Shown here one piece after another: positions 33,032 through 39,262 of a stretch of DNA of 64,000 nt (position 1 is its first letter; each line of letters opens with the position of its first letter). Source of the stretch: a virus; UHGV virus genome UHGV-0351052; one strand, written 5' to 3'. The notes beneath the pieces were generated by a model. That model made no database searches. It was not told the DNA's origin and saw only the letters and a program-made list of their open reading frames with translations. The translations under genes were made by a program, and so were the position numbers.

Positions 33032-33335
33032 TTTCTTCTCGGTCAAATCGGTGTTTACAATGGCGACATTTATAACGAAGATTACTAGTCTGCCAATGGA
33101 CCAATTGCACCTGTTCAGTTCCACATTCAGGGCAATTAGGAACGTTTTTAGAAGCACGTTCGCGGCGTTCAACCATAACCATAATGGCATCCCAGGCTGG
33201 AGGTTTAAAATCTAAATCATCACAACCGTGAATCTTTCTACGCATTTCCAGATTGTCTTCTTCACCAGCCATAATAATTTTAATTAGACTAGAATTACTT
33301 GAAGCTGCAATGTCTTCTAATAGACGCTTTTTCAT
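33018..33335 (-). CDS. zinc-ribbon protein (105 aa)
   Basis: CPECG...CRHCKH four-Cys motif. Confidence 0.5.
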
Positions 33336-34258
33336 TTCAATACCTCAATAGCATTACGTAAACCATTTGCTTTTGCATTAAGAGCTTTTAACAATTTGGT
33401 GTGTTCTGCAATTTGGGCTTCAACTTCAATCAAACGAGCATTGAGATATTCGCGTTCTTCACTCAGATTATCAGCCTTTTCTGCTTTAGGTTCTTTTACA
33501 ACTTGCTTATATGTATTAGGGTTCTTCAGTTTAATTAGAATGCGTGAACTGTACAGCATTGAACCATTATCTTCGGTTTCGTCATACATTTCCACTACGT
33601 CCATCATCTCCACCATCGTGCAGAGTTTATAAGACAACGAACGAATAATTTTGTTGTGCTTATTAATTTCTCTAGCTGTCATGGTGCCGAGATTACGTGA
33701 GTAATAATAAGGAACCTGGATATTAATTAATACTGATGAACCACCTGGCTTATGTGTTACTTCATCAGCAATAACCCAGTCCTTAACATGAACTGTATTT
33801 GTACGGTCATCACCAGCGGTAAATAGTTTGCGAGCATGCTTAAAAAGCATATTCACTTGGGTATTGAATTGACAAGCAAATTTATCAGCAAATTTAGTTT
33901 CAGGAATGGTAGATAACCAATCAGCCAAATGGGTCTTTTTAACATCGTTAACAATAGTAAATTCAACCAAATCGGTTATAGATGTTGTAGATTTAATGAA
34001 GCTTGGCTTCATAAAGTTTTTAATGTTATCGCGAGCTATAGTAGAAGATAACATACGAGAACGTTTAAACCATTCAAGCAAATTGCCTAACGAATGAGAA
34101 TAAGCGTTTTGAGTATCTTTACAGATATGATTTTCCTGGCCAACATATTGAAGGAAATCACGAAGAATATTATTAATTACTGCTCTGTGTCCGATCTGAT
34201 AATTGCGGGGTTTAGTAATAAGACTGTCAAAATAATCAATATAATGTTTACGAGTCAT
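33332..34258 (-). CDS. hypothetical protein with C-terminal coiled coil (about 308 aa)
   Basis: ORF 33332-34309 trimmed to Met with GAGGAG Shine-Dalgarno. Confidence 0.55.
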   Translation of the reverse strand: MTRKHYIDYFDSLITKPRNYQIGHRAVINNILRDFLQYVGQENHICKDTQNAYSHSLGNLLEWFKRSRMLSSTIARDNIKNFMKPSFIKSTTSITDLVEFTIVNDVKKTHLADWLSTIPETKFADKFACQFNTQVNMLFKHARKLFTAGDDRTNTVHVKDWVIADEVTHKPGGSSVLINIQVPYYYSRNLGTMTAREINKHNKIIRSLSYKLCTMVEMMDVVEMYDETEDNGSMLYSSRILIKLKNPNTYKQVVKEPKAEKADNLSEEREYLNARLIEVEAQIAEHTKLLKALNAKANGLRNAIEVLK

Positions 34259-34287
34259 AATAATCTCCTCAGTAGAAAGTAAGAACA

Positions 34288-34316
34288 TTATACCACATCC
34301 TTGTGGCAAAGTAAAC
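34288..34316 (-). promoter_or_regulatory. T4-type early promoter
   Basis: attata (TATAAT) 34288-34293 and gtaaac 34311-34316. Confidence 0.5.
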
Positions 34317-35338
34317 TAGTTCAGTGCATTTAGTGCATTGTTCAGTTTAGAACGTTGCTTTGTCAGATTTTGAACCCTTGACTGTGCTTGTTCTAACGCC
34401 TTTTCAGCTTCTAACACTTCATTAGTTGCTTTAACGAGTTCATCATCTACTGCTTTAAGAGACTTCTCAATCGCGTCAGCGTGCCATTTTTCTACAGGTT
34501 TAAAATTTGAATTTTCAGTAGGAAGAAAACTCACTTTATTAAGTTTACATGCATCTATATTGCTTGAGCTATACATCCAAAATTTAGGATCGTTTGATAA
34601 GTAATTGGATAAATTTAAGTTATCTTGCACTTCCTGCTTTTTCTCTTGCGGGACTTCATCCTTTCTCAAAAAATCATATTTAAATGAAACGATCATATCA
34701 AGTTCATACGTTGTTGTATGTTCCCAATTTCGCTCAAAATGAGGTAAAATCTTAGACTGAACAGCGGCAACAACATCCATATACTTAAATGCTTCTGTCA
34801 ACTGCGATTTAAGGCATTCACAAATTGAAAGAGAATTTTTTGTATTAGGTTTAAAGCTAATTCGTGCAGTTCTGTTATTTTCTTTTAATGGTCTTACTTC
34901 CATCTGAAGAGTATAACCATCAAATTTCAGGTTCTTTAAGTTAATGTCAGAACCTTTTAATCGACTAGCCGTCGACAAAATTTGCTTTAATTGTTTACGG
35001 AATAGAGCAATAAATCTCCATTCAATACGATAATGATTTGGATTAAAAAATCCAGATGATAAATCAACCTTACTTTGACCAACGCCTTGAACAAATAGAG
35101 GATTTTTATAATCAATAGTTTTACAGAAATCGGTGAGCTGCTCACGAGCAGTCATTTGTGTAATATACCCTGCTTTACTAAAATTACGCACCCATTCACT
35201 GCTATTCGTATACTTAAAGTGATGAATAACACGATTAACTTTATCAGGGTCTAAATTATTTTCACACAAAAATGTCATAACATCACGAGTATAACTGGCA
35301 TTACGAACCATATCTTCAATTTGAGAACGAGTTTTCAT
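34316..35338 (-). CDS. hypothetical protein with C-terminal coiled coil (340 aa)
   Basis: ORF track. Confidence 0.55.
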   Translation of the reverse strand: MKTRSQIEDMVRNASYTRDVMTFLCENNLDPDKVNRVIHHFKYTNSSEWVRNFSKAGYITQMTAREQLTDFCKTIDYKNPLFVQGVGQSKVDLSSGFFNPNHYRIEWRFIALFRKQLKQILSTASRLKGSDINLKNLKFDGYTLQMEVRPLKENNRTARISFKPNTKNSLSICECLKSQLTEAFKYMDVVAAVQSKILPHFERNWEHTTTYELDMIVSFKYDFLRKDEVPQEKKQEVQDNLNLSNYLSNDPKFWMYSSSNIDACKLNKVSFLPTENSNFKPVEKWHADAIEKSLKAVDDELVKATNEVLEAEKALEQAQSRVQNLTKQRSKLNNALNALN

Positions 35339-35346
35339 AGTGTTCC

Positions 35347-36255
35347 TTAAGATTTAAGTAAATCAACAATTTTAATTAATTTTTCACGCTCAGATTTAGC
35401 TTTACTACTCAGTCCAGATAGTCTGAAAATTTCATCATCATATTGTTGAATAGAAATATTCAGCTCTTCAATCTGCTTATTAAAATAATCAATTTGTTCA
35501 GAATGTTTTTCGTTACTACGAACTGGTACAGGGTTTGTAGGCAATTTAGTTGAACTGGATTCATCCGGGCGATAAATTAAAATACAACTTGAACCAATCG
35601 GGCATTTAGCACCAGATGAATATTCTAATGTTCCAGCTTCTTTTAAAACTTCAAAAGCTAAACAGAGGTGATGCCCCATATTAACATAATCTGTAGAGCG
35701 AGCTCTGATATAATAATCATCGCCCCTAGTACTAAATTTAAAGCATTTAAGGTCTTCTGTATTATTAGTTTTAAAAATCATTTGTTTATCTAGACCTTTA
35801 GCTAATCGAGCGCCTAATGCTAATAATCGTCGTTGATTTTCCCACAAATCTGCGATCATTTGGTCAAATGATAATTTCGGCATTAGTCGGCCATAAAGGT
35901 CATATCCTTTATTATAATTGCGAAGGATTTCACTCGCATTAATACGAGACAATGCTCCAATTTTATTAAGGGCTTTCATAATGCGATTAGATAAATCCAT
36001 TCCAGACTCGTGTGTTCGCTGCAAATGTTTTTCTAATCCAAATCCAATATCAACTTTAAATTTATCTAAAATTTCAGCATGAACATCTTTGTCAATAACA
36101 TTCAAATTCAGAGTTAGATTAAATCTATGAAAAAATTTATCTGGCTCTCCACGACGAAGTACAGTCCATTCATTCAATTTTTTATTAACTAAAGATTTAA
36201 TTACTGTATTGACATTATTAATTGCTACTGACATATTTTCCTCACTCAATTTCAA
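35347..36255 (-). CDS. hypothetical protein with C-terminal coiled coil (302 aa)
   Basis: ORF track. Confidence 0.55.
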   Translation of the reverse strand: MKLSEENMSVAINNVNTVIKSLVNKKLNEWTVLRRGEPDKFFHRFNLTLNLNVIDKDVHAEILDKFKVDIGFGLEKHLQRTHESGMDLSNRIMKALNKIGALSRINASEILRNYNKGYDLYGRLMPKLSFDQMIADLWENQRRLLALGARLAKGLDKQMIFKTNNTEDLKCFKFSTRGDDYYIRARSTDYVNMGHHLCLAFEVLKEAGTLEYSSGAKCPIGSSCILIYRPDESSSTKLPTNPVPVRSNEKHSEQIDYFNKQIEELNISIQQYDDEIFRLSGLSSKAKSEREKLIKIVDLLKS

Positions 36256-36678: not shown

Positions 36679-36706
36679 ATTATACCATCCTTGGTATAAA
36701 GCAGTT
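36679..36706 (-). promoter_or_regulatory. putative middle promoter (MotA box TGCTTTA plus extended -10 TATAAT)
   Basis: minus strand reads aacTGCTTTAtaccaaggatggTATAATgg. Confidence 0.4.
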
Positions 36707-37232
36707 ATGCGAGTACCGTCTTTAACCGTTCTTCAAACTTCCGAAGAGTATTTTGGCGTTCAGCTCTTTGCTTTTTGTAAGTTTCAATACGCTCTGAAAT
36801 GAGAGTGTATCGTTCATTTACTGATTCTTTCATAAAATCAGGAATTTCACGAGAAGCTTTAATCTCGTCAAATTTATCAATAACAGCTTGCTCTTCAGCA
36901 ATTAAGTTATCATACATCAAAATATCTTTCTTGATGAACTCAATATCTTCTTGAGTTACACGAGATAATTTAGATGCTTTATCCTTTTTGTACTGTTCGT
37001 TAGTATCACGAGACCAGTGTAATGTACGATTTTTATTCGTATTCTTGTAAATTTCTACAATACCAATCTCATCAATAATAACGATCCAATTCCAACGGGA
37101 TTTGTAAATTTGTCCTCCATCAACCGTGATTTCACCTCCGATTGAGATGTCATTAAAGAACTTGCTTTGTGCTTCTGATTTAAATTTACCATCGTTGTAA
37201 TTTACCAGGTTGAAAATATCTTTAGCGTTCAT
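36705..37232 (-). CDS. hypothetical protein (175 aa)
   Basis: ORF track. Confidence 0.5.
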   Translation of the reverse strand: MNAKDIFNLVNYNDGKFKSEAQSKFFNDISIGGEITVDGGQIYKSRWNWIVIIDEIGIVEIYKNTNKNRTLHWSRDTNEQYKKDKASKLSRVTQEDIEFIKKDILMYDNLIAEEQAVIDKFDEIKASREIPDFMKESVNERYTLISERIETYKKQRAERQNTLRKFEERLKTVLA

Positions 37233-37254
37233 TTTGTGTTCCTCCGTAGTTGAT

Positions 37255-37290
37255 AGTTGTATAGTACCACAGAGGAACGATCTTGTAAAC
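37255..37290 (-). promoter_or_regulatory. T4-type early promoter
   Basis: gttgtatagtaccac -10 region and gtaaac 37285-37290. Confidence 0.55.
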
Positions 37291-38678: not shown

Positions 38679-38700
38679 TTTTACATTTGTTTTGATAGGG

Positions 38701-38732
38701 TAATAGTATCACACTACTACCCTACTGTAAAC
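38701..38732 (-). promoter_or_regulatory. T4-type early promoter
   Basis: taatagtatcac -10 region and gtaaac 38727-38732. Confidence 0.5.
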
Positions 38733-39145: not shown

Positions 39146-39180
39146 TTTGTTTTTCCGTTTAAGTGTTTGTTTTGATAGTT

Positions 39181-39212
39181 GTATAGTACCATAAAGCTTT
39201 ATGCTTGTAAAC
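39181..39212 (-). promoter_or_regulatory. T4-type early promoter
   Basis: gtatagtacc -10 region and gtaaac 39207-39212. Confidence 0.55.
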
Positions 39213-39242
39213 AACTTTGTGAAAAATTTTTGAAATAAAAAA

Positions 39243-39260
39243 GGGAGCCCGAAGGCTCCC
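39243..39260 (-). terminator. UUCG-tetraloop hairpin terminator
   Basis: gggagcc-cgaa-ggctccc directly downstream of the nucleotidyltransferase ORF. Confidence 0.6.
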
Positions 39261-39262
39261 TA

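Follow-up and report, generated by a model that had tools for sequence, protein, structure and literature searches.

The window, by which we mean the whole 64,000-nucleotide (nt) stretch of UHGV virus genome UHGV-0351052 that was analysed, carries three adjacent open reading frames (ORFs) on its minus strand between positions 33332 and 36255, and these ORFs are the subject of the present study. The window is T4-like (Tequatrovirus), with a G+C content of about 35% and nearly all of its long ORFs on the minus strand, and its genes follow the order found in T4: 49, the pin-region ORFs, nrdC, nrdC.1, nrdC.2, the three ORFs, nrdC.7, nrdC.8, nrdC.9 and nrdC.10. Comparison of the segment 33000-36700 with a phage collection matched 688 records at 80-96% nucleotide identity. 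Nearly all belong to Tequatrovirus, and the closest is Escherichia phage 215Ecol030PP (96%). Judged by profile matches and gene order, the three ORFs are orthologues of T4 nrdC.3, nrdC.5 and nrdC.6 (Table 1).

The first ORF overlaps the start of nrdC.2, as it does in T4, and its homologues carry Pfam PF26897 according to precomputed annotation. The second matches Pfam PF23882 (DUF7235) with 410.5 bits against a cut-off of 30, covering positions 1-307 of the 307 in the profile, and it has the same length and neighbours as T4 nrdC.5, with which it shares 94% amino acid (aa) identity. For the third, orthologous to T4 NrdC.6 (PF26899), an alternative TTG start at 36255, which is where the initial annotation began this ORF (35347-36255), would give 302 aa; the most likely start is instead the ATG at 36234, because a GAGG ribosome-binding site precedes it, the nrdC.7 stop lies just upstream and the T4 annotation agrees. 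Between its nrdC.3 and nrdC.5 genes, T4 possesses a fourth copy, nrdC.4. The 333-aa product shares a PHROG with nrdC.3, to which it is 27% identical, and the gene is absent from the window phage. NrdC.3, NrdC.4 and NrdC.6 of T4 have no assigned function, whereas NrdC.5 counteracts the Dsr1 defence, as discussed below.

Table 1. Positions of the three genes and of features within and beside them.
Feature	Position	Strand	Description
nrdC.3 orthologue (paralog 1)	33332..34258	-	308 aa; phrog_1435, E=4e-115 over residues 1-308; synteny with T4 nrdC.3
nrdC.5 orthologue (paralog 2)	34316..35338	-	340 aa; phrog_2351, E=4e-167
nrdC.6 orthologue (paralog 3)	35347..36234	-	295 aa from ATG 36234; phrog_2257, E=3e-150; between nrdC.7 and nrdC.5
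Shared body motif, nrdC.3	33806..33868	-	FNTQVNMLFKHARKLFTAGDD, residues 131-151; aligned by hhalign
Shared body motif, nrdC.5	34946..35002	-	FRKQLKQILSTASRLKGSD, residues 113-131; aligned part FRKQLKQILSTASRL-KGSD
Shared body motif, nrdC.6	35788..35847	-	LWENQRRLLALGARLAKGLD, residues 137-156; invariant in 30 homologues
Predicted C-terminal coiled coil, nrdC.3	33335..33487	-	residues 258-308, COILS-type P about 1.0; nearly invariant in orthologues
Predicted C-terminal coiled coil, nrdC.5	34319..34483	-	residues 286-340, COILS-type P about 1.0
Predicted tail of nrdC.6, coiled coil and second helix	35350..35520	-	residues 246-302 (302-aa numbering)
N-terminal helices, nrdC.3	34013-34171	-	residues 30-82; sub-threshold matches to the core-binding domain of XerD
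Early-promoter-like site (TTTACT-17-TATAAT with TG), ribosome-binding site and nrdC.4-deletion junction	34245..34315	-	promoter scan; comparison with T4

Profile-level kinship of the protein bodies

The initial annotation described three consecutive proteins with unrelated-looking N-terminal bodies. At the pairwise level this description stands, since BLASTP among the families returned nothing convincing; at the level of profiles it does not. Family alignments were built from database homologues, the annotated genes of RB69 and VR7, and the remote nrdC.5 relatives retrieved by an exhaustive HMMER search. With these alignments, hhalign related the nrdC.3/4 profile to nrdC.5 with P=1.8e-6 and a probability of 90% over 159 columns (residues 51-245 against 37-214), a match that lies in the body and excludes the tail. 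It also related nrdC.3/4 to nrdC.6 with P=5.3e-5 and a probability of 67% over 203 collinear columns (55-308 against 86-301), and this second alignment spans body and tail and reaches both C-termini. Among the 104 controls, the best P was 0.05 in 56 reversed-profile comparisons and 0.011 in 48 comparisons with 16 unrelated window proteins. Three members of the nrdC.3/4 family also match Pfam DUF7235, with a best E of 0.012. The clearest feature that the three families have in common is a helix ending in G-x-D, which is invariant inside each family and whose three versions are listed in Table 1.

On the strength of these profile comparisons, nrdC.3, nrdC.5, nrdC.6 and T4 nrdC.4 are best described as one diverged family of tandem paralogs. 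A repeat scan showed that the paralogs have no repeats in common at the DNA level, and the duplications are therefore old. The new element here is that three database families are united, together with the prediction that this yields for nrdC.3, nrdC.4 and nrdC.6: nrdC.3 and nrdC.4 were already one group in PHROGs (phrog_1435), and the link of these two to nrdC.5 and nrdC.6 is recorded neither in Pfam nor in PHROGs, which list the three families separately. For annotation purposes, we suggest that Pfam DUF7235, PF26897 and PF26899 be placed in one clan.

Several other candidates for membership or kinship were set aside. The neighbouring nrdC.8 showed no relationship by hhalign, and matches of the nrdC.3/4 profile to C-terminal regions of cyclic nucleotide-gated (CNG) channels (E=0.24) and to Pfam PHL domains were judged to be noise. 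Sequence and profile searches of the PDB retrieved no relatives.

Predicted architecture and the C-terminal coiled coils

A C-terminal coiled-coil tail had been proposed for each protein, and this part of the initial annotation is upheld. The scan was a re-implementation of COILS with a 28-residue window, its MTK matrix entered by hand, and it was checked against internal controls. It predicts one high-probability segment per protein, each of them C-terminal, with P between 0.98 and 1.0 over 35-55 residues, and the AlphaFold2 helices of nrdC.5 and nrdC.6 agree with it; the peptide originally quoted as an example is the exact C-terminus of the second ORF. In nrdC.6 the predicted coiled coil covers residues 246-280 (P 0.98) and a second helix then reaches the end of the protein. 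T4 nrdC.4 also scores, over residues 286-333. Segments with P>0.9 occur in 7 of the 98 non-overlapping window ORFs of at least 70 aa, and four of these seven fall within 33.3-37.2 kilobases, the fourth being nrdC.8; by our own arithmetic, the chance of three adjacent positive ORFs is roughly 0.02.

Independent AlphaFold2 models of nrdC.5 and nrdC.6 were compared through the hhalign mapping. The nrdC.6 model (mean predicted local distance difference test, pLDDT, 75; predicted template modelling score 0.63) consists of helices over residues 10-157, a strand-strand-helix-strand-strand unit at 172-228, a disordered linker at 229-251 and a helical hairpin formed by helices 252-278 and 284-301. The nrdC.5 model shows the same order: helices at the N-terminus lead to a long one at 107-126, the segment 132-220 holds three strands, then a helix, then two more strands, and a disordered linker at 226-276 is followed by a single 59-residue helix (281-339), which is the most confident part of the model, with block-mean pLDDT of 76-92 from residue 291 onward. 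When the two are mapped onto each other via nrdC.3/4, secondary structure agrees at 61% of 127 positions, a figure to be read with the poor quality of the nrdC.5 model in mind, against 36 +/- 9% and a maximum of 53% for shifted controls. The layout proposed for every member starts with a helical N-terminal domain and a small beta-beta(-beta)-alpha-beta-beta core, from which a disordered linker of 25-50 residues leads to a C-terminal coiled coil continuing to the last residue; the conserved helix ending in G-x-D stands just before the alpha/beta core.

Foldseek comparison of the nrdC.6 model with BFVD gave full-length matches, at 10-16% identity, to uncharacterised proteins of 300-346 aa from T4-like phages of Enterobacter, Pectobacterium, Acinetobacter, Serratia, Klebsiella and Yersinia. 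Two BFVD targets within 325-346 aa are matched by the nrdC.5 and the nrdC.6 models alike, namely A0A1Z1LY96 of Serratia phage CBH8 and E5EPQ6 of Acinetobacter phage Acj9.

How much can be read from the tails themselves? In every group of orthologues, conservation of the tail equals or exceeds that of the body, and the nrdC.6 tail is the best-conserved part of the family alignment across genera. Profiles made from the tails relate nrdC.3/4 to nrdC.5 with P=0.0017, to nrdC.6 with P=0.0046 and to the Acinetobacter phage homologue with P=4e-4. These weak similarities are in register and anchored at the C-terminus, and the best of 18 controls gave P=0.013; we regard them as suggestive only. A motif L-x-x-[AIV]-[ILVM]-x-x-L-[KN] occurs in all members, at the C-terminus or one residue off, and among the 183 window ORFs it terminates only these three. 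The motif is descriptive and does not amount to a test, because it was defined after viewing the sequences.

As a separate observation, the low-confidence model of the central alpha/beta domain of nrdC.5 (34679-34945, residues 132-220) has many Foldseek matches, at E of about 1e-3 to 1e-2, among phage tail-completion, neck-terminator and head-tail connector proteins, and one T6 record labels nrdC.5 as a tail sheath stabilizer and completion protein. These matches could hint that a structural protein is mimicked, or the poor model could simply be producing noise.

Gene turnover and sequence variation

The composition of the array differs between phages. T4 carries nrdC.3, nrdC.4, nrdC.5 and nrdC.6; the window phage and RB69 (Mosigvirus) carry nrdC.3, nrdC.5 and nrdC.6; and VR7 (Gaprivervirus) carries nrdC.4, nrdC.5 and nrdC.6. 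Further afield, related tailed proteins are found at this locus in T4-like phages of Klebsiella, Citrobacter and Acinetobacter. At the syntenic site between nrdC.10 and nrdC, a single protein of 324-343 aa that ends in a coiled coil is encoded by each of the phages Merlin (Moonvirus), FRZ284 (Jiaodavirus) and Konradin (Acinetobacter Lazarusvirus). By hhalign, the 324-aa protein of the Klebsiella phage FRZ284 matches nrdC.3/4 with P=2.6e-6, the 343-aa protein of the Acinetobacter phage Konradin does so with P=3e-4, and the Merlin and FRZ284 proteins match each other with P=4e-6. Syntenic proteins of 262 aa from Merlin and FRZ284 were also tested by hhalign and were rejected as members. An exhaustive HMMER search of 1.84 billion representatives with the nrdC.5 profile returned 13 matches, made up of relatives from T4-like phages, of fragments and of a single coiled-coil protein with repetitive sequence. 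At the sequence level the family is confined to T4-like phages; a scan of IMG/VR with the nrdC.3/4 alignment found close relatives only. Both nrdC.6 and nrdC.8 occur in 742 records of the phage collection, compared with 554 for nrdC.4 and 551 for nrdC.5.

The absence of nrdC.4 from the window can be traced to a junction. The promoter-like site, the ribosome-binding site and the first codons before the window nrdC.3 are identical to the sequence upstream of nrdC.4 in T4, through ATGACTCGTAA; where ATGACTCGTAA meets ACATTAT, the sequence beyond is nrdC.3 coding sequence. An upstream region of nrdC.4 type is thus joined to nrdC.3, and nrdC.4 was therefore lost when the 5′ ends of the two genes, which are homologous, recombined. 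Counts by identity band place nrdC.4, at 80% identity or more, in 465 records against 502 for nrdC.6, and roughly 7% of Tequatrovirus records appear to lack it. The nrdC.5 gene is disrupted in two phages. In Ec_YwIITB1 (L005 2815-3779) a frameshift splits it into two ORFs, and the idea that an alternative allele occupies the site was rejected, since the difference is merely this frameshift. In RB69 (L003 6959-8000) the annotated C-terminus is out of frame and the conserved coiled-coil tail ...LDKAQAKLRDAQSVVTNLQLQYSKLFNAMNALKS is encoded in another frame. Both genes are either pseudogenes or the product of sequencing errors.

Ratios of nonsynonymous to synonymous substitution (dN/dS), computed against four Tequatrovirus relatives, are 0.22-0.36 for nrdC.3, 0.12-0.17 for nrdC.5 and 0.06-0.16 for nrdC.6; for other genes of the locus they are about 0.03 (nrdC and nrdC.9), 0.02-0.12 (nrdC.8) and 0.05-0.08 (nrdC.10). 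Within Tequatrovirus, nrdC.3 exists in two deeply diverged allele classes, exemplified by the window gene and that of T4 (L001 3330-4256), whose proteins are 60% identical with a dS of about 1. Between the classes, amino acid identity is 77% at the N-terminus, 71% in the tail and 47% in the middle, and such a mosaic, with the ends kept and the middle hypervariable, is typical of host-range genes. Rates and conservation pattern together indicate that the constraint on the family is purifying yet relaxed, its centre being variable and its ends constant.

As a minor observation on this variation, nrdC.6, nrdC.5 and nrdC.4 of Shigella phage Sf25 (L011 2356-6083) are each about 250 base pairs (bp) longer than their T4 counterparts, and Sf25 nrdC.6 holds an exact internal duplication of about 82 aa. 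This lengthening looks like an assembly artefact rather than biology.

Candidate roles in counter-defence and the surrounding locus

Although T4 is the best-studied phage, most of what it encodes from nrdC to tk is still without an assigned role. An exception is nrdC.5. Srikant, Guegler and Laub (eLife 2022, PMC9391042) describe an evolved T4 deletion mutant that does not grow on ECOR17 or on MG1655 with ECOR17 dsr1, and report that nrdC.5 alone, expressed from a plasmid, complements this mutant and restores growth on cells with the Dsr1 sirtuin defence. The window protein, 94% identical to that of T4, may share this activity. The tetratricopeptide repeat (TPR) sensor of Dsr1 is reported to be triggered by a phage major capsid protein (2026 preprint, PMC12803255). 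Another gene of the locus, nrdC.1, which stands two genes from nrdC.3, is reported to inhibit Septu (2025 preprint, 10.1101/2025.11.20.689424). In the literature searched on T4 NrdC.5, its architecture, coiled coil, mechanism and kinship to nrdC.3, nrdC.4 and nrdC.6 are not described, and a full-text search retrieved no paper naming more than one of nrdC.3, nrdC.4, nrdC.5 and nrdC.6.

We think it probable, with some reserve, that the T-even early genes nrdC.3, nrdC.5 and nrdC.6, together with T4 nrdC.4, are an old and diverged tandem paralog family encoding oligomeric proteins that bind host defences. According to this model, the coiled coil would make each protein a homo-oligomer and the fast-evolving central domain would bind a host protein directly, so that each paralog, made early in infection, would neutralise a different defence sensor by stoichiometric binding. 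NrdC.5 would occupy or inactivate Dsr1 before the capsid trigger appears; it could pre-empt Dsr1 in this manner because it is made early and the major capsid protein is made late. Since nrdC.5 disarms a bacterial immune protein, nrdC.3 and nrdC.6 may well have similar anti-defence jobs. With four of the genes between nrdC and tk forming one family whose sole characterised member is an immune antagonist, nrdC.3, nrdC.4, nrdC.6 and the T4-like relatives become candidates for counter-defence, and the family offers a starting point for finding how NrdC.5 stops Dsr1. A bolder version, which we put forward as doubtful, sees the nrdC.3/4/5/6 array as an anti-immunity toolkit, duplicated and variable in copy number, of oligomeric decoys that would use a single scaffold and whose hypervariable centres would plug Dsr1 and other sensors of phage structural proteins before their late triggers arise, the single-copy relatives of Klebsiella, Citrobacter and Acinetobacter phages acting alike.

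Several results weigh against the family and the role proposed for it. Direct comparison of nrdC.5 with nrdC.6 by hhalign gave no link (P=0.045), so nrdC.3/4 serves as the hub and the connection between the other two is transitive. The nrdC.5 model is of low confidence, with a mean pLDDT of 58. Pairwise Smith-Waterman alignments of the last 56 residues score no better than heptad-preserving shuffles and are not significant against full shuffles either, although this test is weak, since the true paralogs nrdC.3 and nrdC.4 fail it too. The in-register matches from the tail-only comparisons, at P=4e-4 to 5e-3, are marginal, and the unrelated coiled coil of nrdC.8 reaches P=0.004 against the nrdC.5 and nrdC.6 tails. 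Values of dN/dS remain below 1 throughout and thus give no direct sign of positive selection. Finally, a full-text literature search found no functional data on nrdC.3, nrdC.4 or nrdC.6, and the effect of nrdC.5 on Dsr1 could be indirect.

An indirect effect is the essence of a different reading, in which the target of the family would be nucleic acid, of host or phage, or general physiology, for instance through a DNA-binding N-terminal domain. The nrdC.3 N-terminal helices hint at it, since three libraries contain sub-threshold matches between them and the core-binding domain of XerD: NCBIfam XerD at residues 29-85 (E=9e-4 and 18.6 bits, far under the cut-off), the PDB, where XerD 1a0p is the sole match of the N-terminus (E=0.84), and Pfam PF02899, the SAM-like core-binding domain of tyrosine recombinases, in 6 of 20 nrdC.3 homologues (best E=0.057). 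A direct hhalign comparison of the nrdC.3 N-terminus with that domain gave P=0.0016 at a probability of 16%. All library matches nevertheless lie under the curated thresholds, the nrdC.6 profile shows nothing against the same domain, no catalytic motif was found, and the PADLOC defence models, compared with nrdC.8 as well as with the three proteins, gave no match up to E=0.1. Apart from the XerD lead, the NCBIfam scan gave sub-threshold noise. The hypervariable middle and the pattern of presence and absence suit host-range genes better, and we consider a nucleic-acid role rather improbable. We also judge it unlikely that the paralogs are subunits of a single hetero-oligomeric complex, held together by pairing between different tails and possibly including nrdC.8. 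The genes are adjacent, on one strand and probably co-expressed, their tails are of similar length, and nrdC.8 has a C-terminal coiled coil and the same record count as nrdC.6. Against an obligate complex argue, however, the independent losses (of nrdC.4 in the window and of nrdC.3 in VR7, with nrdC.5 frameshifted in two phages) and the single-copy relatives in other genera. Plasmid-borne nrdC.5 alone complements the T4 deletion mutant, too, although that mutant may still have carried the other paralogs (PMC9391042).

The remaining two explanations concern the tails. The initial annotation proposed a cassette organisation, in which a common coiled coil for anchoring or oligomerisation was recombined onto unrelated effector heads. 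The tails are indeed real and conserved, all three end alike in L-x-x-A-[IL]-x-x-L-[KN], and two proteins resemble recombinants: the natural hybrid P0056, which joins the nrdC.5 body to the C-terminal half of nrdC.3, and P0202 (L007), the sole candidate for a head from elsewhere on this tail, in which a foreign head of 120 residues is followed by a near-perfect nrdC.5 tail and then by the start of nrdC.4. The heads, however, are homologous by profile and by secondary-structure comparison, and the order of the layout is shared; P0056 is a deletion fusion between paralogs that gained no new head; and the tails diverge between paralogs as much as the bodies do. P0202 derives from one MEGAHIT contig of 803 bp (ENA ERZ27280904, k141_89665) in which nothing T4-like among the references corresponds to the first 479 nt, and none of 50,697 phage records contains its head; the contig is probably an assembly chimera, and P0202 would be a real example of a cassette if genuine. 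By eye, the upstream reading frame of this head resembles GIY-YIG/T5orf172. Nor do the tails align pairwise, their high coiled-coil probability notwithstanding. As the heads are homologous, the tail would have been inherited with the whole protein through tandem duplication and not shuffled onto effectors, and we regard a cassette origin as very improbable. A constant tail beside a variable body is still a fair functional picture. That three unrelated proteins merely share the charged helical C-termini common in AT-rich phage genomes seems to us scarcely credible. The failure of pairwise tail alignments to exceed heptad shuffles would agree with it, as would a genome of 35% G+C, which favours sequence rich in K, E, N and I. 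Coiled coils are nevertheless present in only a few of the window ORFs, the bodies are related by profile, the tails are the best-conserved parts of the family across genera, and the same architecture recurs at the syntenic locus of distant T4-like phages.

The comparison with T4 nrdC.x genes that the initial annotation proposed thus identified orthologues, one of which has a known function. Two other phage systems help to place the preferred reading, an oligomeric family directed at host defences. The internal proteins IPI, IPII and IPIII of T4 do follow a cassette plan, with a short common module on variable bodies; this module is a short peptide at the N-terminus that targets the capsid, and after packaging the proteins are injected. 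They are described as a hypervariable T-even accessory locus of anti-defence proteins (PMC9391042). The nrdC family differs from them in that its common part is a C-terminal coiled coil, probably inherited with a homologous body, and in that its genes look like ordinary early genes. DSAD1 of the SPbeta phage is closer in function. It acts by binding the sensor region of DSR2, and in this way blocks a SIR2-type NADase defence that senses a phage structural protein. Its repression or suppression of the DSR2 sirtuin defence is reported in several studies (PMC10973363, PMC10981675 and others). Host, phage and target (DSR2 and the tail tube protein) all differ from those of NrdC.5, and the likeness is one of function alone.

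The surroundings of the array offer a few further observations. The neighbouring nrdC.8 (36705-37232, minus strand, 175 aa), whose predicted coiled coil covers residues 144-175, is extremely conserved, being 100% identical in many phages and 65-83% identical across genera. Rfam and tRNA scans of the region found no RNA genes. A promoter scan placed early-promoter-like sites upstream of nrdC.3, nrdC.8 and nrdC.10. A repeated element of about 25 nt lies at 37250-37274, 38686-38711 and 39166-39196, upstream of nrdC.8, nrdC.10 and the next gene, and overlaps early-promoter-like sites of the form TTTACA-17-TACTAT with TG; a strong terminator-like hairpin is present at 39242-39261.

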